From Euglena gracilis (lineage: Eukaryota), in contig CP154954.1 of assembly GCA_039621445.1 (NCBI GenBank), positions 17,328,589 through 17,392,588 on the forward strand: a stretch of 64,000 bases of DNA, in the 5' to 3' direction. The notes under the pieces are model-generated. The model made no database searches. It was given only the letters and a program-made list of their open reading frames with translations, and was not told where the DNA came from. Below, piece by piece: positions 7,201 to 52,582 of this stretch. A program made the translations under genes and the position numbers. Numbering within the stretch: position 1 is the first letter of the stretch; each line of letters opens with the position of its first letter.

Positions 7201-10200
7201 TTTTTTTGCAGTGTTTGTGAAAAAAGTGTGGGATACGTCCCGATCGGCGCGGTGCTGCGCCAGGGGTTTGCCTGGCCGCCCGGCCGGGGGGGGCGACTCC
7301 GGCCCCAACGAGCCATTCGGGGACAGCGGCAGTGGCCCGGCGTTGGGGGACACGCTGGAGGTCGCGGTGGAGGACGGCATGGTCACCTTCGCCGTCAATG
7401 GCCAGCCGCACGGGGCGGTGGCCATGCATTCACTTAACCAGGGAGTTTCTTAAGCCCGGCCCCACCCAACCCGGGAGGGGGGTCCAGCCAGCCAGCACCT
7501 TTTTTCTAACCAGCAGCTCCCGGCTGGGCTGCGAACTCCCCCCCCCCCGGGGTTGAATGGAAATTCAGCTTTCGCAGCCTGGCAAAGCCGGGCTGGGTGG
7601 AGAAGATTTCGGCGCAAAGTGCCGACGGTTTTGAACATGGGGGTCAAAGTCGGCCGAAAATGGCCAGTTTTGCTACTTTTTGGGGTTTTTTCACCTAAAA
7701 TTGTGGGCCAAAAAGTACAACCCAGCTGCGTTTGGACTTTTTGCCTGTTATTGGGTCCCAGCCTGGTCCAGCCTGGCAGCTGGTTTCGAACCACCTCCTA
7801 TTGGATATTTTTACCCCTTTTTCGGGTCCCCCCTCCCCCTAAAAGTGGGTTAGAGGGTTTTGATCTTGGGAGGCAACTAAGTGAATATTTCGCCGCGGCA
7901 GCGGTGGAGCAAGACAGCACGCTGCGGTTCGGGGTGTCGCTGTGTGGCGCCGGCCAGCGGGTGAGGCGCACTGCCGTGCCTGGAGGCGGGTCTGTTTCAG
8001 CCAGACCGTCAAAATTGTGTTTTTCTTGTCATGAAAAATGATGTTTTTTCCTTGTCATGAAAAGTGATGTTTTCTTTCTTGTTATGGAAAAATTCACCCC
8101 TGAGGATTTTATCGAGTAACCCGTGGAATTCCTTATTTTCTTCAATGGTTACCCTCAACATTGTCTTTCCTTGGTGCAAGGTTTCCTGCCAAAGGACTCC
8201 TCAAATCGTAGTGTAGCTTTCCCTCCGAATTCCTGAGAAGTGCATGACTGTGATAAAATGGCCATCATTTTTGTACTGCATTTGCACCTCTCTAGTTGCC
8301 CCCCCCCCATGTTTCACCTGGGATGTGGCAGCATTCTCCCCGGAATGCTGCCACCGTTTTGGAAGAATGCAGGGTGGTGCAGGCGATCGTTGGTGGTTGC
8401 AGAGACCCTGCCAGCTCCGGCCCACTGAGTGTTCCACAGGAGGATCATCCGGCCAGTCATTTTCTCCACCAATTTGATTTGCTTCCGTAAATTTTTGGAG
8501 TTGCGTTCTTTCTTCGGCCGGGGGGGGGGGGGGCGCCACGGTTTAAGTCCAATCAGCTTGCTCCCTTTTCTCAGTCCGCAGCCCAGACGAGAATTTGTTG
8601 GTCGAACAAAGTTTTAGGCAACCAACCACTTTCCTGGTGATTCTTGTCCAGGGTGGTTTTCCTTTGGGAAGAGCACTCTGAGTGGTGGTCAAATTTCATA
8701 AATAACCAATCATGGCTGTGAAATACTATCCATTTTTTGAGATTTATACATTTTGAAAAAGATCACCAGATTTTTTGACCATTTTTGGTGGATTTCGAGT
8801 TGCTTTTCTGCCAGAAAATTTTGTACAAGTCAAAGTTTTCAAGGAAGAATAATTGCCATCATTTTGCATGAAATGTCGTTTTTCAAAATTAGAATTCCTT
8901 GTAACTTTCCATTATTTTTTGCCAACCAAAATTTTTGTCCGCACCGTTGCTCAGCCCAGATTGTCCAAATGAAAAGAATCTGTGCAAAAAATTAATTGAA
9001 AACAGGGTTAAGAATCAGCAAAAATGGTTGTCTTTGGCCTGAAATTTGGCTGAGGCTTCCCAACCAGTGGCATTGGATTTTCCGTTGGTTTCCATCTTGA
9101 CCCCCCAGCCCCCCCCCCCCAGGGTTTCAGCTCATTGGACCTCCTCAAGGGGCGACCCCGCTCTTCTTTTCTCTTTGCGTTTTCTTCCGTCTCTCATTTC
9201 AGTGGTCGGAGGATCTTCCGGTGCACGACCCCCGTGGAAATTCCTCCTTTTCGTTGCTCCTCCCTCCTTTCTCGTTGGAAGTTTCCCTACCAAAGGCCGC
9301 CTCAATCGTAGTGATCTTTTCCCCCGGTTCTGTCTCTGATAGAACACTGCCCGTTTTGTTCCGCATTGCACCTCTGGGCCCCCCCCCCCCCAGTTTTGTG
9401 GCCATTCTCCCCTCTTCTCCCCTTGCGCGTGCGGTTCCCGGACGATCCCTTGGGTGCCTTTCTCGGCCCACTGCAGCCCAACTGGTGTTTTTGTTTCCTC
9501 CTTCCGGCCGTCATTATCTCCCGCCTTCCGTATGGTCTTCGTTTTCTTTCTTTCGGGGGGGGGGGGGCGTAACGTTTTAATCAGCTTGCACCCTTTTCTT
9601 TTTGTGTTCCCCGCCCGGACGAGAAGTGTGGTATGGTATTTCAAAGTTTTAGGCTCACCCTTACTTTCCTGGTGATCTTGTCAGGTTTTCCTTTGGGAAG
9701 AGCACTCTGGTCTTTCTTTTTTTTCATACCTTCTTTTTTTTTTTTTTTTTGAGTTTCCTTTTTTGGGGTGGTTTCGATTTTTTTTTTTGCCAGAAAGTTT
9801 TGTCAAAGTTTTTTAAGGAAGATAATCCATCATTATTGCATGTTTTTGGTGGAATTCTTTTGTAATTTTCCATTTTTTTGCCAACCATTTTTTTTTTTCA
9901 GCAATTGTTGCTCAGTTCAGATTGTCCAATGAAAAGAATCTTGCAAAAAGGGTTGAACGGGGTTTAAGAATTCAGTGAGTCCATCTTGTCCTTTGGCTGC
10001 CTTTTTGTTGGTGATTTTTTCCGTTGGTTTCCAACCGGCCCCCAGCCAGGCCCCCCCCCCCCCCCTAGGGTTCAGCTCACTGGACCTCCTCAAGGGGCGA
10101 CCCCGCTCTTCTTTTCTCTTTGCTTTTTCTTCCTCTTTTTTCATTGGTTGGATCTTCCGGTGCAACACCGGAGTGCAGCGCTTGGGATGACGACGGGGAT

Positions 10201-13200
10201 CCCCCATCGGGTGCATCCACTCGCCCCTCCCTCAGCCCCAGGAATTCTTCGAATGCTTATTGAAATACTTCACACAGACAGCTCACTGCGCCGCCCCACG
10301 GGCTCCAACCCGGGATGCGGGGTCCCCCTGGCCACTTACAAGCACGCCATCCATGGCCAAAGAAACCTCAGCAGAGGGAAAAGTGCCACTCAGGGCCGTT
10401 TGTATTTGACCCCAGTTCCAATGCTCCCACCCAAACAATGTGTCGACATGACGTAATAACAAAACGTTAACAAGAAAACCTGCAAATAGCAACACTTCCA
10501 TGTCTTTCCATGTTGTTCCATGTCGAAAGCCTGCTTCCATGCCTTTTGGCTGGTTTGCCATCATTCTGTCACAGGGCATAATAACAGCCAACGTTATTTC
10601 CCTCCCTCCCCATTTTAAGCTGGATTTAAAGCCTCAACAACCAAAATCCCCAGATTTTTTCGGTCACGTTTCTATCTCCGTCCTTTTTCAAATTTTGTAA
10701 TTTTCATTCTGACATTTTATCTTTCCAAAGGGATTTTTTCTTCCAGAGTTAGAAAGTTTTAGACATTATGTTCCGGCTCCTTGCCATCATTTGTCTTCTT
10801 GTGTCGATGGTAAGTCGAGAAGTTTTTCCGCTGCCGGATTGTTTTTTCTTTTGAAGGGTCCCTCCCACTTGCCACGTGAGGGTCCATCCGTCCATAACCA
10901 CCCAGCACCCTCAACCCCAAGCTGAATTTCGACAAAAAATCCAGGTTCAGGTATGCCAACCTTTGGGTGGACAAAAGTGGTCCACTTACCCCTTGCTGGC
11001 TTTTCTTATTTTTTTTTTAGCCCTGGTTTTGAGCATCGTGTTTTGGGCCAACCAGTCCCGCATCACCTCCCCCCCCCCTTGTGGGGGTCCTGTGACAAAA
11101 CGGGAGGGTGTCGGCCACTACCCATCGCACCTTTGCCTTTTTTACATTTCGGTGTCGGACCAGATGCTCTGCAGCCACTGATGGCTGGGATTATTGCACC
11201 ATTGCGGGCCACCGGATACTTATGCGCAGAGCCGAAACAATTCAAGAAGTGATGAACACATGTGCATCCATGATTTCGATTCAAATGGCAGACTCTCAAT
11301 AAAGTGCCCCATTTCGGTTTCTCAAAATTGCCCCAAAGATTTCATTGCCCAAGAAATGCCAGAAGTAAAAGTTTTTGACCTTTTTTGTGGGATCCAGGTA
11401 CCTTCCAACTTTTTTTTTGGACCCTTTATCGACCACCTCCCCAGTCGGAGGACAGAGGTTACTGGGCGTACGACATAGGGGGGGGGGTACCATGGAGATG
11501 TGCATGTGGAGTCGATGGCCACGCGGCCAGCAGATGCGGTCCGGCTGGTACCCCTCGCATCCAAGCAGGGCACCGTGAAGCGCTACAACGCAGCAGACGA
11601 CGCGTATTTCGTGGAGTTCGACAGCTGCGGGTCCCATTGGGTGCCCCGCTCCTGCTTCAACGTGAGCCTCGTGTGAAGCCGCATGGATTCACCCTATTCT
11701 GGAAACCGTCGTCTGCATTTCGATGTGGAGGCATTTGAATCCCTCTCGTGCCCTAATGGATTGTCCCACTCCCGAGCGATGCAACCTGGTAGGTTTGGAT
11801 CGGCCTTTCCTGGGGGAGGGGTGGGTGGCAGGCATGTGCGTTGCCAAGGCAGACCCGTCTTTTTTTGGTGCCCAAAGGGAGCCAGGGAAGTTCTGCACGG
11901 TAGTTCCTTTCTCTGTGGCTTTGGACGTGCACTTTTAAATGGTTTCCAATTCGTTCAGTTGTCCAAAGCTGCCGCTTCGGGTTCAGTTGGTGCGCTATCA
12001 TCCTCCTTGCCACTTCAGTGCTGAGAATGGAAAGTACACGCGCTGGCACGTCGGAGCCCAGGAACTTGGACCTTGCCTGTCGAATTGTTCCTGTCCAATT
12101 GACCGACAAAAGTGGGTATTACAATAATTTCGCGTGGCTGCTTTTTTGAAGGAAAGGCGTCATTCTGCCTGCCCCCTCCCCCCACTGGGAAGTTATTTCC
12201 CCCAGACTCTCGCTCGTATCCACCAATTTAGCTTCACAAGAGGTGCCCCTGCTGCAATCGCATTTGGGATTCCTCGGAAATTTGCTTTTATTGGGGAAAT
12301 GGTTTTCAAAAAAATTTGGTGGACTTTTTTTGAAAGTTCATTTTTAATTGGATTTTTGACTAAAAAGTGAAATAGAAAAAAATCTGCCACTTGCAAGTTG
12401 CTCTTTGTGGACTACTCACCAAATTGGCCTCAATGAACGTTCCCTTCCCTGCTTGGCGTCAATTTGATTGAAGCCATTTTCCCAAGAAATGAAAACCCCC
12501 TTGTCCCAACTGAGCAAAAATGAATTACAAGAAATAAAATATCTCATATCCTGAGTTATTTGAGGAGGCTTTGGACTCCATAGCCGACTGACAGTCATCC
12601 CATGTACCCCCCCCCCATTTGGCTATGTCCAGACTCCCTCAGACCCCCCATTAGCCAATTAGTTGGAAGGGACAATTGGCACGAGGGCCCCTACCCCCTA
12701 ATTCTTTACCTGTGAAAAATTGGCATTGGTATTTTTTGTGTGCATAGTTGGATTCGTCATGACTTTTTCTTATCTGGCAAAAAAATCAAATTTTTTCGAA
12801 ACATAATTTTTAAAGGTTTGTGAGCCCTTTTGGCACCGTCTGCCCTTGCCCTTGCCAAAATTGGCCCATCTTCTCCCGGAGGCCAATCAGCAAATTGGGG
12901 TGGGGGTCCAACAGGGGGTTGAGGGCAGGGTTCGATATAAGGAGGGCGTACAAGGTTTAGGTGGGGGGGTGCCCCCCACCCCCCCCCCCTCCTGGCCCGC
13001 AAGGGGTCCGGACCCCCCAGCTGTCTTTACATCAAACCCTGGTTGAGGGTACAAAAGGTTCAAAGCCATGCCTTCTTGCCCAACATTTTTTGATATTTTT
13101 GAGGTTGTTGACGGATTGGGACAATTAGGCTCCTCTGGAAAGAAGAGACACACCGCCATTTTCGGTACGAAACACCGACATTTTTGGGACCCCAAACACC

Positions 13201-16200
13201 TCCGCCCTCTGGGTTTCAACAAATTCCTGTGCCCTGCCCAGTTGTCTGCCTTGGGGGACAGGTCCCTGCCCCCAACCGCGTCGTGAGGGGAAAAACGTGG
13301 CAGTGGGGCGACGATGATGGGGGAGCTGGCAACGTGGGCGTCGTGACCACACCGTTGCTTCGGGGGTTTCCACCTCGCCCCCCCCCCAACGGGAGTGATT
13401 GATTGACTGCTTTTTTCCCCCATAAAATTGGGAATCCTCCTCCCAAGGGGTTGGTCAGCAACGGTGTGGCCGTGACGGAGGTGGACTTCAATGGCCCGGA
13501 ATGCGTCTGTGTCACGTGGCCGATCGGACCCAGCAAGCACAGCTCTACCCTCTGAGCTCCAACCATCTCTCCGACCCCCCCCCCCCGTCTTCGTAGACTA
13601 GACGGGGGTCCACGGCCGGCAAGGGCCGACCAGGTGCGACAAGGGCTGACTGTGACATAAAAGAATCCCATAGGTGGCTGTTTTTTGGCCATTTTTTTGT
13701 CCACCAATGACCATTTCCCCCCCACTTTTATCCACTTTTGCCTCAAGGAAGATGCAAGTCAAGAGGAGGAGAAGGAAGTTACCAAAAGTTAGCAGAAGCA
13801 GCCTCAAGCTGGCAGAAGTGGCTAAAAATTTGGCAGAAACAGCAAGTGGGCAAAAATTAGACGAAAGTCACCAAAAGCTGCAAAGAAGCCCAAAAGTCCA
13901 AAAGCACAAGCATTGACCAACAATGACCAAAAAGCAGTAGAAGCAGCCTAAAATAAGCAAAAGTGGGCAAAGAAAGCCAAACGTGACCAAAAATTTACCA
14001 CAAATCAAAAGCAGCCAAAATTGGCCAAAAAAGCAACCCGGAACACGGTGTATAAAAAGCAACCAAATGTGGTTTATAGCAGCCTAATTGGGGGGCGGGA
14101 ATGCCAAAAGCAGCCAAAAGTGGGCAATACCAACCCCTCCGCCTACCCCAAAATGCTGCCCCCTGGTATCGTGTTTGCTTTTTGCCTGGACTCTTTACCA
14201 ATTCCTTGATTCACAACTTTGGGGGAAGGGACACAGGCAGCCTGAGGGAGAAAGCCTAGTCCTGAGGAGCGGCGGCGCGGATTGTGAGTGCGACGGTACT
14301 ACACTCTGCGGCAGCAAGCCTGTTACGGGGAAGCGTCAGTTTGAACCGCCAGGGTGAGAGGGCTAAAATATGCGCCAGCAAGCCTGGTTACGCGGTGCAA
14401 TTTGCCCACAAAAAAAATTGACTACACAGTAGTTTAAAAGACCCATAAAAACAGTAAAAAAAAATTTGTTCAGTTTGCGCTTCATGTTCGAAAATTTTGG
14501 GAGGTTTTAAGCTTCGAAACAAAAGAAGCGAAAAATCACTGGGGCGCGGGGGCTAAAATATGCGGCAGCAAGCATGGTCCTGGGGTTGTCAGTGTGGATC
14601 GAGAGATCGAGGGGGTAAAAATTTTCGGCAGCAAGCCTCGTAGATCGAGAGGGCGAGGGGGCACAATTTGGGACAGCAAGCCTGGTCCTGGCGAGCAGCG
14701 GCGCGGATCGAGAGGGTGAGGGGGCTAAAATTTGCGGCAGCAATCCCGGTCTTCAGGAACATCGGCGTACATCGCGAGGTCGAGGGACCAAAAATTTGCC
14801 GCAGCATGTATGTGCCTGGGGAGCGACGGCATGGATGGCGAGGGCAAGGGGTTTTATGAGCTGTTGTTGGGCCCGACACATTTGAGGAGATGGAAGGGGA
14901 AAAATTGAAATGATGGTTATTTTCCCATGGTTACAGCCGGGAATGGGTTGGTCAAATCGCTACCAGAGGTCTCCAAATGTAGAACGTACTAAACTCAAGA
15001 AATTCTAAAGCCGAACCACTCTCTTGTCGATATTTCTCTGTTCGAGCTCGCACAGTGCTCGGAAAAGTTGTTCACGTCTTTAGTACAGATGACCGCGACT
15101 GGGAACGCGGCGGGATAATACTAATTGGACCTTGTTTGGTTTCTTTGATCGTTGAGCTGCCAAAGGTATGCAACACCCGTGATGTTTTTAAATGCTGCTT
15201 GTCTTCAGAGGAATGGACAAGTTTGTGGTCAGGAAATCAGTGTCGTTGTCAGTGGTGGACAATTTGAAAGAGGCTGTGAGGGCAGCACCACGAAGAAGAA
15301 GCGAAAGATCTCGGGATCCCCGTGGGGCTCATTGAAGGCAGAAGAAAAAGCCACAATGGCAGAGTTCTATGCCAACAACGGTGTGCTTCTCGCCCCTCTG
15401 TACTTTACTCTTGGCTTTAACTTAGGCTGGGCACGCACAAAATTACGGTTTGGTGTCAACTGTCCCCCCCGGACCACCTTGTATGGGTGGGTTGACAAGT
15501 ACGCCCATGGAATGGAGGTCGGCCACATCGGCCGGCCCACCTGTTTGACCCCCCAAGAGGAAGAGTATGTGCTGCAGGCCATGGCGGACCTTGAAAAGGA
15601 AGGAGCCACTGTGGACCGTGAAGTTCTGGCAGTCCTTGCAACAGAAGCAGCGCAAGTCCTCCGAGGAATCACGTTGGATTTGGGGCAGGGTTGGGCACAA
15701 AGCTTCAGGTTCAATTTTTTTTCAAATTCTGAAATCACAGCGGGTGTCATGTAGGAGGAGGCACAAATTGCCCCCCCCCCTTCCTTCCTCTTCTTTTTGA
15801 TTAAACCTGCATTTTCACAGGACTCGAAGCTCCCAATGGGTGAACCACACATGAAGCCTCTGCTGGTGCAGTGGATGTCGGCGTGGTTGGAGGAAGACAA
15901 TTTGGAGAAGTTGATCAGAAGAAGTTGGGATGTTGTGACGCGGCAACTGGAACCAGGAGAGTGCCCCACAGGTGTGCATCACTCTAGTGGACACGGCCCC
16001 TCCCCCGCCCCTGCAGATGGACAGGAAGCTGCAGAAGATTCAGACGATTCCAGTTTGTCTGACGGTTCACTTCAGCAGGTGGCAGACGTTCTATGTTTAA
16101 AATGGAGCCAAATTATTCTGCTTTCAGGAAGTTTCTGACGAGTCGGATTACGGCATTGGAGGTGACCTGGACAGCGATTGGGCTGTACAGGATTTCGCTG

Positions 16201-28164: not shown

Positions 28165-28390
28165 AACCGGAATCACCGGCCCACCCGTCATCAACACCCA
28201 GACCTTAAACGGCACCGAGCCCTGCCACCTCCCCATTGCCTGCCCAACCACTCTAACTCACGTGGCCGAAGAACTCTGGAAGCTGATCAACAGCGGCCTC
28301 ACCTCGCGCCTTAAACTATTCTCTAAGCTCGCCCCTTTTACCTTCCCTCCCTTCACCAACGTGCACAGACTGTTGCCTCTGTACATAGCC

Positions 28391-40300: not shown

Positions 40301-43300
40301 AAGGAATGGCCGGAACTCATTTCGTCTTTCAGGTTCATGCGGAAAAATTGCAGAAAGGGAGGAAACTGTGGGGAAATTGCGGGAAACTCGCGGGAAAATT
40401 GCCGAATATTGCAGAAAATTGTGGAAAATCGCGGAAACGGCGGGAAAATTGCGCACATCAATTTCCCCCTGCAAATGTCCCCATGTATTTAGGGACATAA
40501 AAGCATCTGATAGGGTGGGGTGAGAAATATTTTTGCCACTGTGTGTTTAAAAATCACTCTCAAACAAGATCCAATTAAGGCGTCGCTTAGCGACTCCTGG
40601 AGAGAAGTTCCAGCTCGAGGCTGGAAATTTTGCTCAAGCCAGCCCTGTGTGGGAGGCCAAGATGGCCAGCTTGACTGATGCCCACCGCACAACGTTGAAT
40701 CCTTCTTGGTTGATAGCACGAATCAAAAACAGGTCATTGCTGTCATTCATGACCCCCCCCCCCCGACCCATGAAACTTAGACCGCAAAAGACAATTTTGC
40801 TGAAAATCCCGTCTGGGAGAACTGATTGAAAAAAAAATCACAGTAAATGCTGAAATATGAAAAAAAATCTATTGGCAGGTACGCCACAGGCTGTGTGCAG
40901 TGGGAAGAAATGCAACATGGACCCCCAAAGCAAAAAAAAATTGAATGAAATTCTGGCTTTTGGAAGAAGTTCCAGAGACTTATGAGGCAGCCTCCAACTA
41001 AAGGGACCCCCCCCGGGGGGCCTTTAATTGGATCAGGGGGAGGCAATTTTTTTTGTGTTATTGAAGGAATAGGGTTAGGGGTACGACTTAGGGTTAGGGT
41101 GAGGCCTAATTTACAGATTAGTGTACAAGTTAGGCCGAATTTGTAAACCTGACCTCACTCCATCAGTAACGCAAAAAAAAATTGCCGCCCCCCTGATCCA
41201 ACTAAAAGCCCCCCCGGGGGGTCCCTTTGGAGGCTGCCACTTATGACTAGGTGCATTACTGCTCCAGAGCAGACCACCAGCGGGAAGAAGTTATAGCTAA
41301 CCTTAAAATTTTCCGCCTCCCGGCCAGGAACCTTTCGCCACCCAATCCCGCGACTTTTCCATACATTTTTGCAACTTGACCTGGTTTACTTTGGCATTGA
41401 TCCCCGTCATTTTCGCCACATCTGGCCGTCACTCCCGGGACCCTTGGCAGTTGAAAATGGGGCACACCTTAAAGGCACTGGTGCTGCAATTCATGGGGGG
41501 GGGACCCACTTCGGTTCTCCAAAAATGGTCAAAAATCGCGAAAATGCTAAAAATAGCACCCCTTTCAAAAATTTTCGGCGCCTTTGTGGCCGACAAGCAC
41601 ATCCCACCTCCCTCCCCCTGGGGGGGGGGGGGCTGGGCCAGACCCACCCTACCCCGCCGGCGGTCCAAGACTGTAATAATAACCCTGGCATTCAGCAAAT
41701 TGTGGTCACTCTCAACTAAGGTTGGACGACTGTTCGTTCAACCTCGTGAACGAATAAAACCGATTAATCTCCCCTATCCGACGAATAGTCGACTATTTTC
41801 ACCCTTCGAGTTTTCTCTGCTCCATTCCACTCTGTAAATAATACAACAAAAATGGTGAATAGATATATTTGTTAAATTATATACCAGGTCGTATAACATT
41901 CATCGTTTACATTAAAACCTATTTTCTGGGCCCGACGCCTGTCTTGTTTGATTTTAGACACCTGTCCAAAATGATGGATCTATACCTATACCTATTTTAC
42001 CTATTTTATTATAATACTACACCTAACGCCCGTTTCTTTCGCACTCCACACCGTATTTATTTGCACTTTTGGTCAATATTTTGCACCTTATCTCAAAAAT
42101 GTTTGCACCTGTTAAAAATTTGTTCGCACGTTATCTCAAAAATGTTTGCCACTTTATCTCAAAAATATTTGCCTACGTTCCGAAAATTTTTGCACACGGA
42201 TCGGGTGTTTTGCACTTTTGCCCTTAAGTCCGCGTCTTAGGTGCAGGGACTCAGGACAGGCTTTGCATCTAAGACATCTAATGAGGTCTGTGTCTTGAGA
42301 CGGAGACCATCCAAAGTGCTGCGTCTTGAATAATGATTTTGTTGGAACCCCCCAAAATCGACCAAAATGGGTCAGAAAGCGTTTGATTTTATTACCCATT
42401 TTACTATATTCATTAACTAAGAATTATTTCATACAAAAATCGACTGCCACTGGGGTGAAAGGGTGCATGCCCCTAGCAGGCACAACCCCGGGGGGGGGGG
42501 TCCGGGGGGCCCAGAAAATTTTCATTGAAAATGGTCTTTTTCGGGCCCCCGGCGCCTTTGGCACCAGACCCCCCAAAAACCCGACCCCCCCCCCCCCCCG
42601 GCGGGGGGGGTGCGGGGGGGGGGCGGTTGGGGGCCCGCCCCTCCGTGGGGTTGGCTCCCGCCTGTAGGAAAAAAAAGCCTGCCCCCCACAAAGTGTCCCC
42701 CCCCCCCGGCCACTTTGAGGGGGAGTGAGGGTATATGTGCACTTTTCTTTTCTTTTTGAGGACTGTCTTGAAACCCATTTATTTGGAACGGCGCCCATGC
42801 TAGAACCTGTTAATGTCAGTCGATTTGCAAGACAGGCGCCGGGCCCTGGAAATAGGGTTTAAGTTTTTTATTTAATAATTTTCATACATTAATGAAAATA
42901 GAATACCATACATTATTATTAGGACCAATTCTATGGTCTTTTTTATTACATATGAATTGTTAAGTTTTGTTACATATATATACATAGATATATTTATATA
43001 TTTATAAAATACACACACATATATGGGGGAGCACACGGCTGGCCGACGGCTGGCCGACGGCGTGACGGAAGCCGAGTCATTTGTTCATCTGAATGAGGGT
43101 AGCAAATGCCTAATTTGGTGTGCCAATTTGGAAATTTGAGAGGCAAATTCCTAATTTAGTGTGCCAACTCCTAATTTTGAGGTGCAAATTCCTGATTTTA
43201 CGTCAAAATTCCTAATTTTGAGTGGCAAATGCCTCATTTCGGATGTAAAAACACTGAAATTTGAGTGGTAAGCGCTATTTTGGGTTGGCAAATGCCTGAT

Positions 43301-45362
43301 TTTAGGTGTAAAATCCAATTTTCAGTGGAAAATTGGGTGGCATGAGTGGAAATGCACATCTCGGGGTGAAAATCAGTTGCAGCGGCTAATGCCTAAAGCA
43401 ACATGCTTCATGTTGGGTTCAGGTGCCAAATCTTAATTTCGGATGTTCATTTTGAATTATCTTTCAAATTCTACAAGAGGGGCTACCTTGGGCAAGGCAA
43501 TTTTTAGTCACTTGAAACCAATTCACACAAAATTTGAGCCTTTTGTCAGTTCGTTGAAAATGGGACACCAGTTGAGCAATTTTTAGTTATTCAAATACCT
43601 AATTTGCAGACGAAAATCCTTCACAGTGACTATAGAATGACCCAAAAATAGGCCGAAATGGTCAGAATTGGCCAAAAAGAGTCCAAAATTAGCAAACTTG
43701 ACAAAAGTTAGCGAAAAATGACTTAAAATGGGCAAAAATGCAGCCTCTACTAATGATGAACATGACCTTGAAGGGAGATTGACGGCGAAATTGCTTCTTC
43801 ATTGCAAGGCTGTGGCTCGGGACATTTTCCTGTGAGTCACACGGCTGGCCGACGGCTGGCCGACGGCGTGCTCCCCCTATGTAATATTTTTTTGGCAACC
43901 TCCAACTAAAAGGCCCCCCCAGGGGGCCCTTTTAGTTGGAGGTTGCCATAGGCTGCATAGGCTGCATGTATATATATATATATATTATATATATTATATA
44001 TATTAATATATATAAGTGAAGTAATGATCGATTAAAATAGATTATCTTATCAAATAATATATTTTATGTGTATCAATACCTTTGTATTAGTGGGTCTAAA
44101 TCTATTAATCTACTATTATACTTATTTCTATTTATAGATATTTACTTCTATTATATCTGTACAACCTCTATAAAACTATTATATCTGTACCAACTTCTAT
44201 AAAATATTAATCGATACAATAATTATGTACCAGCTAATCCTATAGGTATTGATACAGTGGACCTAATCCAATACATGCTTTATTTGGGCTTCGGGTAGAG
44301 GTTTTAGAGGTAATATATAAAAGGTAAATCTGACATGTGTAGCAATTATAATATATATATATATATGTAATATTGTTAAAATTAAAACATCTTCAAAAAA
44401 CAAGAACTAAAAAAAACTTTTAAAAAAAAAATATTAAAAAATCCCTTGTGGCAGCCATTTTTTTGCATGTAATTTGGCTTCTGTGCACCCAAGAATGACC
44501 CCTGAATGTTGTGCACCAGTCCAATTTTGTAAGAGGCAAATTTGTTCACGACTATTCTTTTTGGGCATGAACAATTAATCCTGTTCAGGGGTCCCGAACG
44601 AATAATCGATCAATCATCAAAACATTGACCTGGGTATGGTACGGCAACTTCCTGCAACTGTAGTCAGCCCTGCTTCACTTCATTCATTTCAGTTTACCAG
44701 TCATTGATTTCGATGCTTGAGCCCTGGAAAGGTCGTTGTTGGCCGGCCCTTCGGCCTGAGGGCGGGCATTCCTTAGTCAAAAAAACCCTGACCCATAATT
44801 GGATTTGGAAAAGTCCAGCCCCCGGAAAGACAGGAAAGCCAGCGGCACCGAAACGCCGCTTTCAGAAAGTGGTGGCGAACGCCGGTTCTGTCGTGAACCC
44901 GGCGTTCCGTCCCAGACACCGGCTTCACGACAGAACCACGCCTCCCTTCTTGATATAGAGGTTCCATTGCGTCAAAAAAAAGCTGCCGCATTGGATTAAA
45001 ATGCTGATGGTGTTTTCCCAGGCATGCAAAAGATGTAACACAAGGGATACTTCTATTTTGGGGCCCTCAGACAGCAAAAAAAAAAAATCATTGGATTGCC
45101 TAAAATCAATGGATTTGCCAAAACTCCCAAAAATTCTGGCGCCTTTGTCGGTTTTTGGCCCATCTGGAGCCAAAACCAGTCAGTCACGCCAAAAAAAAGG
45201 CAGTCAGTCACCCTGGGTCGGAACTTGAAACAAGCCTGTCCTTCACAACATCACTGCCTTGGTTGATGACAATGGTCACCTGATGTGCGTTGGACCCGTC
45301 CTCCACAGGCGAAAAGCTGACTCCCAGCCCAATGAAGTTGGACGTAAATCCAAAGTTGTCAC
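28391..45362 (-). CDS. Gene B: multi-exon protein of unknown function with a coiled-coil segment; span includes introns
   Basis: In-frame chain 37683-37623, 36548-36516, 36065-35981, 35366-35353, 34592-34541, 32116-31870 reads KFHTEMACSGPKADTHDVAMDKAPWPIQEEVGRMLTEVQQEERVSRQRTILLLRGLPGGLTPLRVDGVRVRVGRVFLLDRKGAREVGAWSPREQSGVRWIHHLEHRLHAMLEADLDHRLAALERL. Other exons at 45362-45242, ~41390-41242, ~40715-40575, ~31345-31215, ~29141-29074 and 28474-28391 (stop); their linkage is inferred. Confidence 0.65.
29429..29627. mobile_element. Small MITE with TA TSD
   Basis: TA|ACGTGACCCCCCC ... GGGGGGGTCACGT|TA; same end at ~54325. Confidence 0.75.
30050..30678 (+). mobile_element. Fragment of a CRE-like (restriction-endonuclease-type) non-LTR retrotransposon, post-RT region with Zn knuckle
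   Basis: AVRFASQQRPHAMAWASVTPSSGLKTLVASAEFKGFLKWSLGAPVCPPTGSTCPRCTKPMDNLGNHLVCCSSNGITRRH; frameshifted; truncated by a MITE. Confidence 0.75.
31586..31869 (-). other. Nonconventional intron formed by a long fold-back
   Basis: CCC-CAGAGCCCCC...GGGGGCTCTG-GGGAG; arms ~31585-31708 and ~31783-31872; removal continues the frame SPEEP|DNESSFL. Confidence 0.65.
31870..32116 (-). CDS. Gene B coiled-coil exon
   Basis: Very high GC3; LEHRLHAMLEADLDHRLAALERLNSGALAEENRHLLERIATAE. Confidence 0.85.
32564..34306. mobile_element. 1.74-kb non-autonomous DNA transposon (hAT/P-like, perfect 8-bp TSD) filled with minisatellites
   Basis: CACGTGGG|CAAGCACCTCTG ... CAGAGGTGCTTG|CACGTGGG; contains (CAGCATCGCC)n, GACCACTTTTG-type and 18-bp CAGCATCTGCATCTTGTC repeats. 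Confidence 0.85.
35367..35980 (-). other. Nonconventional intron = MITE 35372-35977 plus one 8-bp TSD, with a nested MITE at 35743-35965
   Basis: Outer TIR C(A/C)GGGCTGTA(T/C)GGGAA, flanks GTTGGGCC/GTCAGGCC; inner CAGGGGTT..AACCCCTG with flanks CGTACAGC/CATACAGC. Confidence 0.75.
36066..36515 (-). other. Nonconventional intron = MITE 36071-36512 plus one 8-bp TSD
   Basis: TIR CAGGGAAT(G/C)TCTCA; flanks GTCCCACC/GCCCCACC; removal gives IQEEVG|RMLTEVQQEER. Confidence 0.85.
40986..41238. mobile_element. GG-ended MITE with perfect 8-bp TSD (Merlin-like ends), within a probable gene B exon
   Basis: ACTTATGA|GGCAGCCTCCAA ... TTGGAGGCTGCC|ACTTATGA; ~70-bp TIRs; short TTAGGG-like tract inside. Confidence 0.8.
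41916..42858. mobile_element. TTAA-flanked non-autonomous element (Kolobok/piggyBac-like)
   Basis: TTAA|AACCTATTTTCTGGGCCCGACGCCTGTCTTG ... CAAGACAGGCGCCGGGCCCTGGAAATAGGGT|TTAA. Confidence 0.7.
43025..43877. mobile_element. Non-autonomous element with GGGGGAGCAC TIR and TAT flanks (PIF/Harbinger-like)
   Basis: TAT|GGGGGAGCAC ... GTGCTCCCCC|TAT; direct subterminal repeat CACACGGCTGGCCGACGGCTGGCCGACGGCGTG at both ends; internal ~21-bp CAAATTCCTAATTT repeats. Confidence 0.65.
45242..45362 (-). CDS. Minus-strand exon (probably gene B)
   Basis: CAG acceptor, GDNFGFTSNFIGLGVSFSPVEDGSNAHQVTIVINQGSDVVK, then GGA-CAG nonconventional donor. Confidence 0.65.
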
Positions 45363-48300
45363 CTGCTACGAAAAATGGGTTCCCTGTTGCCAGGGCTTGG
45401 GATGAAAATCAAATAAACCGCCATCACTAGCAGACAAAAAAGCACCTCAGTCTCCCAAGTTGTTCAAATGTTCAAATCAAACCCTGTTTGTCACCCACAA
45501 TGAAAACACACCACTTGTCGAAGGTGCATCACCACTGATCCCACACCATGTGTTGCATTTTCAGCAGGACTGGGCTACCATGGTGTTTGGGTTTGCATTT
45601 GGGGGGGGGGGGGCTTAATTAATTTGAGGAACAAAAAAGTACAGTGTCACCCAATCTCTCACAGCACAACCTAAAATTGACCAAAAATTGGCTGGTGGAG
45701 GGAGGTGGAAGTGGAATTACCATTCTGAAGCTGCTTTTTTTTAACCTACCACAGGGGAGCCCCTTCGGGATTTCGGCCTAGCTCAGGAACTTTCCTCAGA
45801 AAACAGGCCATTTTCCTTGAAAACGGGCCTTTTTGAGCCTTCCAGCGCCAAAGGCACCGGAGTGCCAAGTGTCCTACCCTACCAGGCACCCCCCCCCCCC
45901 GGGGTGGGGTCGGCACCCGACTTGAGAGGGCATGGTAGGATAACCGAAAGGGGGGTCTGCAAAAGACAACAGACGGGGGGGGTTGGGGTCACAGGGGGGC
46001 TCGCGGGCGGGGGGGAACAGGTTTTATATCATGGGGGTTGGGGACGCGGGGGACGCGGGGGCACCACCATTCTGGGTACCGTGATCTGGCTCATTGTGGG
46101 AAGTTGGTGATGGATTTTTTGGTGGTCACCAGTGATTAGTCGCCAGCGAATGGTCGCCAGCAACTGTTGGTGACAACAAATTGACCCCCAAATGTGGGTT
46201 TTCAAAGGCATTTGGGTGGGTCGAGCCATTTTCCTCCATGAAACGCATGGTCCTCAATGGTCGGCAGTAACATCTAAATGGGAAGAAATTTTCATCTATA
46301 TTGGCATTGCACACAACCATCCATCTTCCTTGAAGAAGTGTTCCCAACTCCGGGACTCCTCCAGACCCCCAATTAGCCCATTGGAGGCCGCTCGGGGGGG
46401 GTCCGACCCCCCCCTCCCCCCCACCCTGCGCAGCCGCCCGCGCGGCCGCTCGCCCCCCCCCCCTGGACCCCCCCCTCCCCACTGTGCCTAGCATAGCCAA
46501 GAAAAAAAATTTTGTGAAAAAATCGCGAGTTTTTTGAGGCCCAAAAATGACCAAAAGTGACCATTTTCGGACATAAAATGGAAAATTTGGGGGCCGCGCG
46601 TTCTGCGCGCGGCCAAAAAAAGCATTTTTTTTGGGTCAAAAATGCCCAAAAATGGCAAAAAATGACCACTTTTTGGACTCGAAAATCCCCAATTTCAGGA
46701 CGCGTCCTGCCTGCGCGGCCGCCCTAGGACCCCCCTCCCCCCCCCCTCCCCCCCGCCACATCTTCCAATCAGACGAACCCAGATCATCTGTACCGCTCAC
46801 CCCCCCCCCTCAGTCCCCCCCCCTCCCCGCTTTGCCTGGCCTCCATTAGGGGTGGGGGGACAACTGGGTGGGGGAGGGAGTTTTTTCCAGCGAATTTTAA
46901 AATTTTTGAAACGGACGTTTTTGGAGGTTTCCTGAGCCCTTCGCGACCTTGCAGAAATTGGCCAGTCAAAAAGGTCTAAAAATCCCTGTGTGGTTAAGTT
47001 CGGACCTCGACAGGGGGGTTCTGCTGTAGGGTTCTGCTGTTCCCGGTGCCTGGGCTTCCCAACAAAACTTTGTTAGTCCAGACCCCGGACCCCTCAAACT
47101 CGCGGTCAGGTTGAGTTCGCAACTTGACAGGGGGTCCCGCAGGACCCCCACCCCCTGTGCCTGGGCTCCATGGGGGGGGTCGCTCTCCCAACGCCCCGTT
47201 TTTGGCCTGAAACCCATGAACTTTGGGTTGTTTTAAGCCCATGTACCCCCTCCCTGGATTTTGGACAAAGCCCGTGGACCCCTACACAGGACTCAGGACA
47301 AAGCCCGTGTACCCCCCACCAATTTTGATATAGGGTCAAAAACAGCGAAAAAAACCGAAAACTTTTCTGTTGCCCAAAACGGATCTCTTAACATTTCAGG
47401 AATAACTGTAAGTTCCCGTAAATTGCAGGTGCTTAATTTGTAAATCATAAATTATGCGAAATTTGCAATGCTCATATTGGCCGTCCATTACATGCAACTC
47501 TCATAAAGAGTCAGTACTTTTCAAAACCTGGTCAAATAGAGAGGGGGTGAGGGTAACAAATTGTCCTCCACAAGCGATTAACCATTTTTCGATCAACCAT
47601 CCTACCTTTTTCTCCCGCAGAACTTGCCACAAAATCTTTTGTGGTTTGCTTGACTGCGACATTCCTATGAAGTGATTTTTTGTCATTTTTGGAAGCCCGA
47701 ATTGGGTTCAGACTGGAGACGGGGGTCGTCTGAGGGGCGTCGCAGAAGGGGTGTCTCTTTGGAGGTTCGGATGGGGTAAGAATGGCTTTTGATGAGGGGT
47801 GGGGGTGGGTTTGAAAAACTTGCCCCAATGACAAGGCCACACATGACCTTATTCTCGAAATAATCGTCACCTCAGTGGTGTTGAGGTTGTGCTGGGACCA
47901 CAACCACCCTGGAGACTGCGAAGTTTTGGATGTGAGACGAATGAATCGTCGATGTACTTTTGCTCCTCCGCCAAAGTTCCAGCCATGAATGAGCCGCATG
48001 CCATCATCATCCAATTCATCAAAAGGTGGCGACAGCGAAAGAGAAGCGGAATGCGAAGAACTTGAAACAAGAATGAATGCAAAGGAAACCAAAAAGCACA
48101 AGCACATCACTGCTCCTGTGGGAAAAAAATTGATGAACATGAGCGGATAGGACTGTTTTAACCAGACCGTGTCCAGTACAGGGATATGTCTGTATGAATA
48201 TGAATGATGAACATGTGGTGATGAAAAATTTGAACGGGCGTCGCGGAACACAAGTAAGCAACACCAAAATGCGGACCAGGTATTCCTAATTCATGGTTGT

Positions 48301-49119
48301 CACGTAGAACCCCACTGAGTCCGCAAGGGACGACGTGGAATGTACATTTCAAATGTGCGCCGGAGCACCATGTACATGAGCGTTGCACGCGGGTTATATA
48401 TTTCGCACTTGGCCTTCTGCCACTTGGCACTCAGAAGAAAGATTTTGGAATCAAAAAAGGTTGTCTGCCGACTCGAACCGAGCGTGCCGAACCGTGATTT
48501 CAGGCGACTTGCTGGACAGTGTGACCTTGACAAGGAGTGGACGGCAATTGTTTTGTGAAACTGAATGAGGAATTTCGACTTTGCAGTCTCGACATCACAC
48601 ATCTGGGTCAGATTGCTCCTCAGATCGCCTCCCTCTGGGTTAAATAAACCTTAACAGGCTTTTGATTGATACCCCTGACGATATGACTTGGTGAGGACAG
48701 TGGGCTTTTTTTTTGGTGCCGACCCCGGGGCAGCAAAGCATAGCACCCCTGCCGACCGTCCCCGGGGGGTGGGTTTCGGGGGTGGGTTGGGCAGCCACCC
48801 CTGTCCAGCGACCACTCCCATTTTCTTTACCCTTTTGGAAAGGGTAAAGAACCACTCGACCTTGGGTACCCTGGCAGGCACCCTTTAGCACCCCCACCCC
48901 CCCCCCTCACCCACCACCCCGGCTGTTTGGCCGATTCCCGTTCTGCCCTGCCCCCCCCCCCCCGGGGGGGGGCGCAGACAAAATACGTGAAATCTGTGAA
49001 AATGCTGTGGTGGGTGGGTGGGTGGGGGGGGGTCGCCCCACCTCCAGTGGGGGGGGGGTCAACCACTCACCCCACCAGGCCTTCCCATTCTGCCCTGCCG
49101 GGAGGCGGTTAAAAATGCA

Positions 49120-51717
49120 CTGTTTCTGGTGCCCGACATTACCCGCCCCCCAAACAACCTGTCGGGGCTGCTCCTGGCAGTGGGAATGACTTGGCGATCA
49201 GGGCACTTTTTGTCTAGGATTCTTGGAACAAAGAGAGAAAAGGGATTTTTTTTTTGGTTGGTTCCAGCCGCTCTCATTCCCGTCAAACTCCGGACCGACA
49301 CAACCAAACCAACACAAAAATGGATGTTGGGGAGGTGCAAATTTCTACACATATTTCGTGGATATTCCCCTTTACTCAGCCTGAGAAAGAGAGATATCCA
49401 CAAAATATCTACAATAGTGAATTAGGGGTCCGATCGCCTGCCCTGTATTTCGCTGGGATGCATCACGCAAGGAAAACGCACAAGTTTTTGGTTTTTTAGG
49501 GGGTCTCCCACATTCTGATGCGAAAACTGTGCCAGAACGCCGGTTTGGGCGTGAAGCCGTGGCTCAGAACGCCGGTTTGGGCCGCCCGAACCGGCGTTCT
49601 GGACACATTTGTTGAAACCGTGGATTTGGGGCTCTGGCTTCACACCCAAACCAGCGTTCAAGGAATCAGGGCCAATTTCGCCCTAAATACCCATTTTTGG
49701 GGCATTTTTGAGCTCCCCCCCCCCCGGCCCCCCCCCCTGGGGGGGTCCTCAAGGAATCCCCTGGCGGGGCAATCATCCGGGTAATCCAGGAGGGATGTGT
49801 CCCACTCTTACCGTGCTCCCCCACAGGCCTCAACCCTGCTGCCCTCCCCACGATGATGCACCCCATCAGCCCCCTGCGCTTCATGCTGGGCGTGATGACC
49901 GTCGGTCCCCTCTCCTTCATGGGCCTCGTCTGCGGGCTGTACAACGCCGAGGAGGCGTACCACACCCCGGCCTGGCGCCAGAGCCGCCGCGTCGTGCACA
50001 GGGCAGGGTCCCCCCTCTCGTGTATCCCCAGTGCCGTGCTCAGCAGAACTTTGAGGCTCGTGGCAGCCAGGGTTTATCTATATCTATATCTACATACCCT
50101 CACCCCCCCCTCAAAGTGGCCACCCTCCAAACACCGTGGGATCCCAAAATTTTCTCTTTTTTCTTTTGTTGGACTTTGCCAAATTCCGACGATCGCGAGC
50201 GCATCTCTGGCTGTGTTAATTGTTCAGGTGCAAACTCACCCCTCAATCGCTTATCATCAGACGACTGGTGATCACCACCAAATTCAGCCATGCTGCACAG
50301 TACTCCACCCCCCCCCTTTATCCCCTTTATTGTTCCATCGACCTGCCCCCGGGAGGCCTATCGGACAATAAGGGGGGGGGGCAAAAAGACCGTACACCCC
50401 CCCCCCCCTTTATTGTCCCCCCCCTTTATTGTCCCTGGGCCCCGGCCGACGGGGGTTTTTTTTGGCCCGGCCAATGAAATTCCTTTGGTACCCCTTTATT
50501 GTCCCCCCCCCTTTATTGTGCGGTCGGGCCTCCTGGGGGCAGGTCGGTGGGACAGTAAAAGGGGCGGGGGTCGCAGTTGGACGGGCCAAAAAACCCCCCG
50601 TCGGACGGGGCCTAGGGACAAGAAGGGGGGGGGGGATTAAGGGGGGGGGGGTGGTATTTCCTGTCACAGGCAAAAGCCTAATTTGACCCGGACCCGGAAC
50701 GGAAGGTCGTCGATTTGAAGAGAAAACTTTCTGGGGGTGGTTCGGGACGCGGGGGGGGGGGGGGAGGGACGCGGGGGGGGGGGGGACTGTGGCCCAACCA
50801 CCCCCACACATTTTCTTGGGCATCACCCAAATTTGTATGGATTTTTCCTTTGGTCAACCAAAAAATGTGCCCGGCCAAAATCCGGGACGCGGGGGGGACG
50901 CGGGGGGAACACCCCCTCTGTATGGTTCATTCCAAGGTTGGTTTTTTTTAATCTCTGGAGCATTCATTTTTTTTGCTTTTTTTTGGGTTAAAAACGTGTT
51001 CAGCCCGCCAAATGCCTGCCCTGAAATTTGTGGTCATGAACACGTTTTCCATTAGGGCATCTGTGGCAATGACACGTTTTCCATTTAGGCATCTGTGGCA
51101 ATTAAAAAAAAATCGCTGTCATGAAAATGTGGCGAGAGGTTGAGAGGCCGGGTGGTCCTCAAGGGGGGCACTCTACAACACAAGAAACGGCCAGAGGTTG
51201 CCTTTGAGCAATACAACAGGGAGTGTTAGACGTCATGGAAGACAACATGCTTCACACAAAAAAGAGCCATATTTTGGTGGCCGCCGCAAATCTTGGCATG
51301 AGAATGGTATGCCAAACTGCAGCCGTCACACACCACTTTCCTCAGCTCCACACAATTTGGATTTTTGGGAAGAAGAAGGAAGAAGAGGAGGGGCAGTGGG
51401 ACTCTGGCGGCAAGCCATCGAGGAAGCGGAGACCACCGCCAGGATCCGCACCAATGAAACCCACCTGGCAGCCGCCCCCATCGCTATGTGCAGGGTGTTA
51501 AGTGAGCTGTGGTTTTGCGGGGGGGGGGGACTGAGGGGGGGGGGTTAGGGACATTAAAAAAAACTTGGTGAATGTTGTGACCAATTCTTCAAAAAAAGCT
51601 CGCAAAAACGCCTTTCTTCGTCGCAAAAAAATTCTGGCACTTTCTTCCACTTTCTTTTCTTTTTTTGCGCAGGGGGAGAGGGGCATAGACCCCTCATTTA
51701 ATACCCTGGCCATGTGA
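49120..51717 (+). CDS. Gene C: putative membrane protein (exons ~49120-49195, 49769-49780, 49827-50000, ~51391-51487, stop at 51715-51717)
   Basis: LSGLLLAVGMTW|RNHPG|LNPAALPTMMHPISPLRFMLGVMTVGPLSFMGLVCGLYNAEEAYHTPAWRQSRRVVHR..WRQAIEEAETTARIRTNETHLAAAPIAM*; strong GC3 bias; hydrophobic segments. Confidence 0.6.
51488..51713 (+). other. Probable nonconventional intron = MITE 51491-51708 plus one 8-bp TSD
   Basis: TIR CAGGGTGTTAAGTGAG/CTCATTTAATACCCTG; flanks GCTATGTG/GCCATGTG. Confidence 0.65.
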
Positions 51718-52044
51718 GGCAGGCATGGCCCCCATCCAAGGTATCTCCACAGCTGTGCTGGGATTCTCTCAATCCAAGCTCCAAGCTTTTGTTTGTGCTT
51801 AAATTGTCCAGACATTGTCTTCTTCGATGGCTTTCAGTGATTTGGTACCAGCGTTTACCAAATTATCCTGTTATTGTTTTTATCCTGTTATTTAAATGCA
51901 TACAGGGGGCAGGTGGCAACCTCGAGCATTGTTTGCTTGTTTATTAAATGTCTACAGCAATTTCCTGCCCCCGCCCCCACGTCCAGCTATTGCTTTCAAA
52001 AACAGCCCAGTTGTGTATGTATGTATGTATGTATGCATGTATGT

Positions 52045-52582
52045 ACCCCCCCCCCTTATTGTCCCACCGACCTCCCCCCGGGGGGCCCGACCAGGCAATT
52101 GCTTAAGCACTGACCAACCCCCCCCCCCCGGGGGGGGTGGGTGACTGGTTTTTTCAAAGTGACTGACTGGTTTTTGGCCCGGACCCCTCCCCCCCCCCCG
52201 AAGGGGTCGGCCAGGAGTGGGCAAAGTGGCTTGAGTGACCCCGGCGCCGAAGGCGCCGGGAAAATTTTTTGGGCCTAAAATGGCCAAAAGTGACTGGAAA
52301 GTGGCCGTTTTTCTGAGTGGCCGACCCCCCCCCCCCCCCAGGGGGGGGGGGACTGGCTTGTTTTTTGAAAATGAGTGACTGACTGGTTTTTAAAAAAGTG
52401 GAGTGACCCCCTTCCCCCCCCCCCCCCCGGGGGTCGGTAAGCAATTGTATAGGCCCGACCGGACAATATGGGGGGGGACATATGTGGGGGTACCAAAGGA
52501 ATTTCATTGGCCGAGCCAAAAAAAACCCCCTGTCGGCCGGGGCCGAGGGACAATATGGGGGGGGGGGGACAATATGGGGGGG
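52045..52582. mobile_element. C-run/G-run-ended MITE inserted in a (TATG)n microsatellite
   Basis: (TATG)n TA|C-run-TTATTGTCC ... GGACAATAT-G-run|TA (TATG)n; related sequence at ~50300-50640. Confidence 0.65.
52092..52451. mobile_element. hAT-like MITE, 360 bp, perfect 8-bp TSD
   Basis: GGCCCGAC|CAGGCAATTGCTTA ... TAAGCAATTGTATA|GGCCCGAC. Confidence 0.9.

Follow-up and report, generated by a model that had tools for sequence, protein, structure and literature searches.

Nonconventional introns in a 64-kb Euglena window as probable miniature transposons plus one 8-bp target-site duplication

The origin and the excision of the nonconventional introns of euglenids have been debated since the 1990s. 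Here, we describe a 64-kb stretch of the Euglena gracilis genome (contig CP154954.1, positions 17,328,589 to 17,392,588; hereafter the window), whose genes are interrupted almost only by introns of this type, and we compare these introns with MITEs (miniature inverted-repeat transposable elements) and the 8-base-pair (bp) target-site duplications (TSDs) that flank them. A MITE origin of euglenid nonconventional introns was proposed by Milanowski et al. 2014 (PMC3935182), and a 2024 review (Mob DNA, PMC11282704) calls the CAG/CTG stem a 'TIR' (terminal inverted repeat) and the junction repeats 'TSD-like'. The knock-ins of Nomura et al. 2025 defined the code N3-CDG...CH'G-N5-6|R with random spacers, and the 3/5 spacing was necessary for splicing (PMC12501133). 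Since introns with random spacers were spliced in these knock-ins, the junction repeats are not needed for splicing. The same work finds 84.4% of Euglena agilis introns to be 'slidable' through short repeats and states that their origin 'remains unclear' (PMC12501133). In the available portions of the literature on euglenid nonconventional introns, we found no text that equates 3+5 with one 8-bp TSD, calls splicing scarless for that reason or names hAT (figures, supplements and a 2021 circular-RNA paper lie outside this scope and may bear on it). The 3+5 spacer rule, the idea of a MITE origin and the 'TSD-like' repeats are already published, and the present idea refines a published hypothesis and describes no new class; what it adds is the link between the experimentally defined spacer rule and a transposon footprint.

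The introner elements of Micromonas and Aureococcus were reportedly described by Huff et al. in 2016. As proposed for the Euglena window, introns arise in these algae when DNA transposons that carry TIRs and produce TSDs insert, and the TSD helps to define the removed piece, but introners are spliceosomal, with GT/GC-AG borders, one splice site in the element and one in a 3-nucleotide (nt) TSD (PMC11282704). The window introns, in contrast, have no canonical sites, the cut is measured from an RNA stem, and an 8-bp TSD is split 3+5. In Amoebophrya and Fritillaria borealis, too, introns without GT-AG borders occur en masse, bear inverted ends together with repeats at their junctions and are read as MITE insertions neutralised at the RNA level, but the TSDs there measure 3-5 nt or are TAC-linked, and an altered spliceosome is held responsible for the removal (PMC11282704). 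The window introns share with other euglenid nonconventional introns the lack of GT-AG, an end-pairing stem (in 6 of the 20 introns studied here with exactly the CAG of +4..+6 opposite the CTG of -8..-6), spacers that measure 3 and 5(-6) nt, a downstream exon that starts with a purine, and junction repeats that make the borders 'slidable'. A further trait of that class is excision as a full-length circular RNA along a non-spliceosomal route; the RNA joints described below are linear ones. A Ds element that serves as an intron in maize is said to have been described by Giroux in 1994. The splicing of Ds is imprecise and makes use of cryptic canonical sites; it is not scarless, in contrast to what is proposed here for Euglena. 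With Ac/Ds and other hAT transposons the window elements share an 8-bp TSD, short TIRs (PMC3942097), a 5' end of the type C/TAGGG... (PMC3260210) and many non-autonomous derivatives; hAT elements have TIRs of 10-25 bp, a transposase and subterminal binding repeats, and it is by their TSD and ends that the window elements are hAT-like.

Geometry of the stem, the cut and the flanking duplication

The window is nuclear DNA of euglenid type; it is GC-balanced and highly repetitive and contains many poly-G/C tracts. The intron set comprised 20 introns on the + strand, 17 from protein mapping (gene 1) and three from RNA (gene 2), whose coordinates are given in Table 1. For gene 1, residues 260-693 of the transcript-derived protein P0001 (eukprot EG_transcript_755, 1232 amino acids) mapped to 18 exon pieces at 2125-13531, and all junction pairs reproducing P0001 were enumerated for each of the 17 gaps. 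Gene 2 is a small gene that starts at a trans-splice site at 49826 and has three introns according to RNA mapping, for which contig sets X1 and X2 and raw RNA runs X5 and X9 were placed onto 34400-52400; the mapping gave the 15 joints listed and 198 more. We then counted, over the allowed junctions of the 20 introns, stems of at least three contiguous Watson-Crick pairs starting at each offset from 0 to 9 on either side. The offset (3,5), at which +4 pairs with -6, was present in 15 of the 20 introns; as a control, decoys made from the 5' end of one intron and the 3' end of another (n=380) gave a rate of 0.105 (binomial 2e-11). The runner-up offsets, (4,4) with 12 introns, (4,6) with 10 and (2,6) with 9, are slid or extended versions of (3,5), and the other cells held 0-7. 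Across the 20 introns, the triplets at the stem were exact CAG/CTG in 6, CTG/CAG in 1 and CGG/CCG in 1, and 7 of the 15 register-conforming introns have other complementary triplets. The downstream exon begins with a purine in 14 of these 15.

The introns had been predicted to lack GT-AG borders, and 19 of the 20 have no GT/GC-AG option among their allowed junctions, so that the spliceosomal removal at a canonical site by which introners are defined was not found for them. The original prediction had further held that the CAG at +4 and the CTG at -6 are transposon ends and that 3+5 amounts to one 8-bp TSD; this inference was examined on the 20 introns of the window as an independent set, and the core 3+5 geometry is supported. 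Minimum-free-energy folding gave closing stems in all three introns folded (site 4, site 1 and gene 1 intron 17); z-scores for the folding of whole introns lay at only -1.6 to -2.4, and the folds serve to display the stems and not as statistics. Intron 2 of gene 1 is a 'hybrid' that has GT...AG borders plus a 7-bp CAGGGCA/TGCCCTG stem at +4/-6, in the same register. In g1_i1 (intron 1 of gene 1) and g2_i3 (intron 3 of gene 2), paired swaps (CAG to CTG and CTG to CAG) are seen at both ends, and the ends of g2_i3 are those of the site 3 family; these swaps fit selection on pairing.

Four elements had been predicted to interrupt exons (sites 1 to 4, Table 1), and all four were located exactly where they had been placed, each flanked by 8-bp direct repeats with the expected identity of 6/8 (sites 1 and 2) or 7/8 (sites 3 and 4). 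At site 4, which is intron 2 of gene 2, the TIR is CAGGGTGTTAAGTGAG / CAGGGTATTAAATGAG (14/16) and the TSD copies are GCTATGTG at 51483-51490 and GCCATGTG at 51709-51716. RNA mapping showed that the element and 8 nt are skipped here, as predicted: there are two joints, each skipping 226 nt, which equals the 218-nt element plus 8, with totals of 203 reads in X5 and 556 in X9. The T form, with the joint 51485->51712 (slidable by 5), has the T that is found in the left TSD copy, and the predicted 51488-51713 falls within its range; it is backed by 85 reads in X5, by 139 in X9 and by a single contig in each of X1 and X2. The C form, with the joint 51482->51709 (slidable by 2; 118 reads in X5, 417 in X9), carries the C of the right TSD copy. 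The joint of intron 1 of gene 2, 50000->51412, was unambiguous, with 362 reads in X5, a further 1064 in X9 and a single contig in each of X1 and X2. Since this intron has no junction repeat, its cut sites are fixed at exactly 3 nt ahead of CAG and 5 nt past CTG. Intron 3 has the junction variants 51755|54942 (2+5) and 51754|54943 (3+6), and loose read ends at 51754/51755 match 54942/54943 onward.

Intron 9 of gene 1 corresponds to site 1, and an exon upstream of it is 100% identical to P0001. Across the site, P0001 reads ...NGQPHGAVAAVEQDST..., in which HGAVAAVE spans the junction; the junction is thereby fixed between repeat positions 5 and 8, and site 1 is proven to be a true intron by protein evidence. 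The allowed exon ends at 7419-7423 correspond to registers from 3+5 to 0+8, plus one step past the repeat. Introns 13 and 17 of gene 1, like site 1, are missing from P0001. Intron 17 has 12 contiguous TIR pairs from +4/-6 and a TSD of GTCGTGAC / GCCGTGAC (7/8), and the TSD mismatches at site 1, at site 4 (T form) and in intron 17 are all compatible with 3+5. Removal of an element plus 8 nt is shown at three sites.

The observation behind the original prediction is thus largely real, with qualifications. The TIRs start with CA at sites 2, 3 and 4; at site 1 the ends agree only from the 6th base on (ATTCACTTA) and the inverted-repeat ends are weak. Y|R...Y|R junctions are present, in direct reading, at sites 1, 2 and 4 and not at site 3. 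The interruption of an exon stands at site 1 by the transcript-derived protein and at site 4 by the RNA joints. The continuous reading frame is near-trivial at site 4, with the stop codon TGA at the junction (GCT ATG TGA). Sites 2 and 3 are good MITEs and, as far as their letters indicate, candidate introns only, which limits the reading as to their location in exons. The ends of site 3 are compatible with the published splicing code on either strand, and the site 2 element contains an internal tandem duplication. No supported joint was seen at sites 2 and 3 among the 15 joints listed, where RNA depth was low. The exon proposed between these two sites is 27 amino acids long, under the 40-amino-acid minimum of the protein search, and a longer contiguous reference was dropped owing to a stop codon inside it.

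The original prediction had proposed comparing the two 8-mers that should be copies of each other. We compared the 8-mer of 5 exon and 3 intron nt with the 8-mer of 5 intron and 3 exon nt in the 15 register-conforming introns, and the identities were 1, 3, 5, 2, 5, 2, 4, 2, 6, 4, 3, 2, 7, 3 and 7, or 56/120. Decoy flank pairs had a mean of 2.51/8 (permutation p 0.0005 for the sum and 0.004 for the three cases with at least 6). By duplication length T, identity was 0.467 at T = 8 and 0.20-0.31 at the other T of 4-14, and it was 0.40 and 0.42 at T = 2 and T = 3, which cover few positions. Per position, a mean of 7.0/15 matches was found within exon -5..intron +3 (positions -4..+3) and 4.28/15 outside. 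The five introns without the helix, which were excluded, scored 4, 0, 3, 4 and 1, and site 1 scores 6 at its predicted junction. These results show an excess at 8 nt and at no other length.

Elements with 8-bp duplications and their superfamily

We scanned the window for CAG...CTG inverted ends that are at least 12/16 identical and 80-2500 bp apart. The scan gave 106 pairs, of which five have 8-bp flanks identical at 7-8/8 (sites 3 and 4, 12926-13041, 38321-39795 and 60408-61910) and 101 have flanks at 0-5/8. As a control, 30 block shuffles gave a mean of 36 pairs and a total of one pair with flanks of at least 7/8. Near-perfect flanks occurred at T = 8 only, with none at T = 7 or T = 9-12. 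A looser scan added the CA-starting candidates 13348-13468, 32564-34306, 56952-57313 and 63478-63894 and one candidate, 40986-41238, whose detected ends start with GG. Two families have more than one copy, each with its own TSD: copies A and B belong to one family of about 360 bp at two loci (52092-52451 and 56952-57313), and the elements at 38321-39795 and 60408-61910 form a second pair. The flank excess at length 8 and the different TSDs of copies A and B firmly place transposons that generate 8-bp TSDs in this window. Since the spacers follow the local exon flanks and are not constant within a family, as copies A and B show, DNA transposition is favoured over spread of excised intron RNA. 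Bursts of near-identical introns, which the term 'introner-like' would imply, were not seen within the 64 kb, and for site 3, site 4, intron 13 and intron 17 there is no second copy of the element in the same range.

The predicted hAT-like nature of these elements held for the 8-bp TSD and the CAGGG ends, and no transposase was found to go with them in the reading frames scanned. Superfamilies other than hAT that make 8-bp duplications include P, Merlin, Novosib and Zisupton. That the elements are MITEs of another such superfamily is unlikely, though far from negligible: no transposase domain, of hAT or otherwise, was found in the 10 scanned of the 40 longest open reading frames (ORFs) of the window, which weighs against our reading, and some families start with CACAC, CAAGC or CATAC instead of CAGGG. 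On the other side, the main families begin with CAGGG or CAGAG, which resemble the C/TAGGG of Ac/Ds (PMC3260210), one or the other being present on at least one arm in 5/5 of the best CAG-type elements, and short TIRs with 8-bp TSDs match hAT (PMC3942097). On these features, a hAT-type transposase is the putative source of the duplications.

Proposed mechanism and its alternatives

We consider it probable that the nonconventional introns are MITEs plus one 8-bp TSD that are excised scarlessly by a 3/5 cut, the younger ones being recognisable as such. A non-autonomous cut-and-paste transposon would insert into an exon and duplicate 8 bp of the target. The younger introns would still show its short inverted ends, mostly starting CAG.. 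and finishing ..CTG, and these ends would pair in the pre-mRNA. A putative nonconventional splicing activity would then cut outside the stem, at a distance of 3 nt on its upstream (5') side and of 5 nt on its downstream (3') side. Since 3 + 5 = 8, the element would leave together with a single copy of the duplication, and the mRNA would regain the sequence it had before the insertion. Over time the duplication would decay, and the stem and its spacing would persist. If the 3/5 spacing is one TSD, a single account would cover the CAG/CTG stem, the spacer lengths and the 'slidable' junction repeats; the idea also points to a candidate transposon superfamily and turns the question of origin into a genome-wide count. 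If it is true, an insertion into an exon would do no harm even when new, and the very high density of introns would thereby be explained.

To a wider reading we give a little less than an even chance. It holds that the 3/5 spacer rule exists because its two parts sum to 8 bp, the stagger that a hAT-type transposase leaves, so that splicing would serve genome-wide as an 'undo' that reverses hAT-MITE insertions at the RNA level. A MITE plus TSD at varied stages of decay would then underlie most of the ~70% nonconventional and ~84% 'slidable' introns, and the cutting activity would have co-evolved with the transposon family or may derive from it. A MITE origin of most nonconventional introns goes beyond the introns counted here, and we infer it from them.

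Several observations weigh against the proposed reading. The test covers one 64-kb window with two genes. P0001 is 75-100% identical to the window exons in the alignments, and for this reason it is probably the product of a paralog. The +4/-6 helix is missing in 5 of the 20 introns, namely g1_i3, g1_i5, g1_i6, site 1 and g2_i3. Among these, g1_i6 has CAGG/CCTG at 4+4, with the sum still 8; g1_i5 has a sum of 5, or of 8 if the window paralog is one residue shorter; site 1 lies outside the CAG/CTG register, its helix ATTCACTTA / TAAGTGAAT sitting 8 and 10 nt inward of the intron ends; and g2_i3 is a CTG...CAG swap that is cut at 2+5 or 3+6. In g1_i11 the +4/-6 helix has just three pairs, and by eye a CAC...GTG TIR extends to the intron termini. 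The ends of site 2 (CAG..CGG) violate the published splicing code on both strands. A duplication of at least 6/8 is kept in only 3 of the 15 register-conforming introns and one of at least 5/8 in 5, with the other 10 at background. At site 4, the commoner C form, if it comes from this locus, requires a cut 6-8 nt before CAG and not 3, the reads are a mixture to which two or more expressed paralogs contribute (49906 T>C, 49919 A>G), and an element-free paralog could yield the same 226-nt 'joint'.

In an alternative that we find quite improbable, real MITEs are a minority of the nonconventional introns and most arose in other ways, for example from conventional introns or from intron transposition at the RNA level. 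MITEs that by chance mimic N3-CAG...CTG-N5 would merely be tolerated in exons, and 3+5 = 8 would reflect selection on the surviving insertions and not the origin of the class. The background flank identity in 10 of the 15 register-conforming introns suits this view, as do the diversity of the helix triplets (CAC/GTG, CAT/ATG, CGG/CCG, GGG/CCC, TGA/TCA) and the position of many window MITEs inside introns or unassigned DNA. However, old insertions are expected at background as duplications decay, the excess is seen at 8 nt alone and ends at the stem, and a single register is common to MITE and non-MITE introns. The signal comes from a minority of young insertions; with MITE plus TSD as the origin, a MITE ancestry would extend to the 10 introns that lack a duplication of at least 5/8.

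There is also a slim chance that the 226-nt 'joints' at site 4 come from paralogs that lack the element in their DNA and that the window copy is unspliced there. At least two further copies are expressed, with 49906 T>C in 353/466 X5 reads, and a paralog of exon 1 lies at 62838-63038, which is 91.5% identical to 49805-50014 and carries exactly the 49906 T>C and 49919 A>G letters. Since the paralog letters appear in the same reads and at 62838-63038, we read the C form as the probable product of a paralog. The T form, however, equals the window's own left TSD copy, both neighbouring introns are common to the window copy, the unspliced reading frame would continue into the element, and the same geometry is seen at introns 13 and 17 of gene 1. 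An empty site was sought in the gene 2 paralog at 62.8 kb and none was found, since what the two copies share ends with exon 1 and the first ~14-17 nt of intron 1. The intron lies at the same position in both, and its remainder is unrelated; the interior of intron 1 has been fully turned over between the paralogs.

Finally, it is extremely unlikely that the junction repeats and end-pairing were selected or created by splicing itself, through microhomology or border sliding, and are not footprints of transposition: short direct repeats do occur at 84.4% of all Euglena agilis introns, conventional ones included (PMC12501133), but synthetic introns with random spacers are spliced at a non-native site (PMC12501133), copies of one family at two loci are bordered by 8-bp repeats that are perfect but differ from locus to locus, one of the copies sitting within another intron, where it need not be spliced by itself, and a perfect 8-bp TSD likewise flanks the MITE nested in intron 16.

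Coordinates and other features of the window

Table 1. Introns, elements and exon of the window, in window positions; gene 1 introns are given at the chosen junctions
Feature	Position	Strand	Ends, repeats and remarks
Gene 1 intron 1	2167-2998	+	
Gene 1 intron 2	3068-3710	+	also GT-AG
Gene 1 intron 3	3826-4164	+	
Gene 1 intron 4	4238-4703	+	
Gene 1 intron 5	4733-5414	+	
Gene 1 intron 6	5514-5862	+	4+4
Gene 1 intron 7	5946-6615	+	
Gene 1 intron 8	6697-7306	+	
Site 1 (gene 1 intron 9)	7420-7896	+	477 nt; SPRY-like exon; direct repeat GCGGTGGC / GCCGCGGC 6/8
Gene 1 intron 10	7966-8384	+	
Gene 1 intron 11	8436-10163	+	
Gene 1 intron 12	10192-10333	+	
Gene 1 intron 13	10388-11176	+	act-CAGGGCCG ... 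GCTCTG-cagcc; TSD GTGCCACT / CAGCCACT 6/8
Gene 1 intron 14	11254-11513	+	
Gene 1 intron 15	11671-12022	+	
Gene 1 intron 16	12056-13273	+	
116-bp CAGGG-ended MITE	12926-13041	.	perfect TSD GTTGAGGG; nested in gene 1 intron 16
Gene 1 intron 17	13345-13473	+	MITE 13348-13468 (121 bp) + 3+5 nt; inside MIB/HERC2-type exon (…GVVT|EVDF…)
Site 2	35367-35980	-	composite MITE 35372-35977; TIR CCGGGCTGTATG / CAGGGCTGTATG; TSD GTTGGGCC / GTCAGGCC 6/8
Site 3	36066-36515	-	MITE 36071-36512; TIR CAGGGAATGTCTCAAG / CAGGGAATCTCTCAGG 14/16; TSD GTCCCACC / GCCCCACC 7/8
1475-bp element	38321-39795	.	CAGRGCAGAACGGGAA ends; perfect TSD CCCCTCCC
Gene 2 exon 1	49827-50000	+	ATG at 49853; spliced-leader-like loose end in reads before 49826
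Gene 2 intron 1	50001-51411	+	1411 nt; ggg-CAGGGTCC ... GACTCTG-gcggc
Site 4 (gene 2 intron 2)	51488-51713	+	MITE 51491-51708 (218 nt) + 3 nt before, 5 nt after; TSD 7/8
Gene 2 intron 3	51756-54941	+	in 3' untranslated region; CTGGGAT...ATCCCAG ends, swapped CTG/CAG type; nested MITEs inside
MITE copy A	52092-52451	.	CAGGCAATTGCTTA... family; perfect TSD GGCCCGAC; nested in gene 2 intron 3
MITE copy B	56952-57313	.	91% identical to copy A; different perfect TSD GTGCCAAC
1503-bp element	60408-61910	.	same family as 38321-39795; perfect TSD GGGTGTGG

In gene 1, P0001 has MIB/HERC2 and ADP-ribosyltransferase-type domains by precomputed Pfam. Exons for its residues 694-1232 were sought downstream, where satellite arrays begin, and none were found; the window copy of gene 1 may be a truncated paralog. 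The arrays at 20159-24823 are large and built from a 66-bp tandem unit, with about three higher-order blocks of ~1.3-1.6 kb each. A GT intron after 7959 was guessed first and was ruled out by P0001. The ORF listing of the window gave no help for gene finding.

In gene 2, the two junction variants of intron 3 differ by 2 nt in the mRNA and both are abundant, with loose ends of 80 and 92 reads for one variant and of 139 reads plus contigs for the other. A GT intron at 51739, which had been guessed first, was ruled out by the reads. Slightly upstream of gene 2, solo right ends of the CAGGGCAGAACGGGAA family lie at 48935-48950 and 49082-49097 on the - strand, and a matching left end was not found. 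The poly-G/C tracts at 35450-35496 and 46730-46754 draw many partly matching RNA reads, which leads to false long-range 'joints' between distant tracts.

On the - strand, 47847-48116 is an exon with the start of an L-type (legume-like) lectin domain (PF03388, E 3.4e-05, falling slightly short of the curated cut-off). The exon is probably part of a minus-strand gene with weak expression, which could reach toward sites 2 and 3. A protein search with this exon returned only the unspliced read-through product P0004 and added no introns. A 96-nt skip of 37655-37750 is present in one low-depth contig (37654|37751); read by eye on the minus strand, it is aac-CGGGCTG...GGCCTG-ttctgg, which corresponds to 3+6 or 4+5 with a sum of 9, and it was excluded from the tests.

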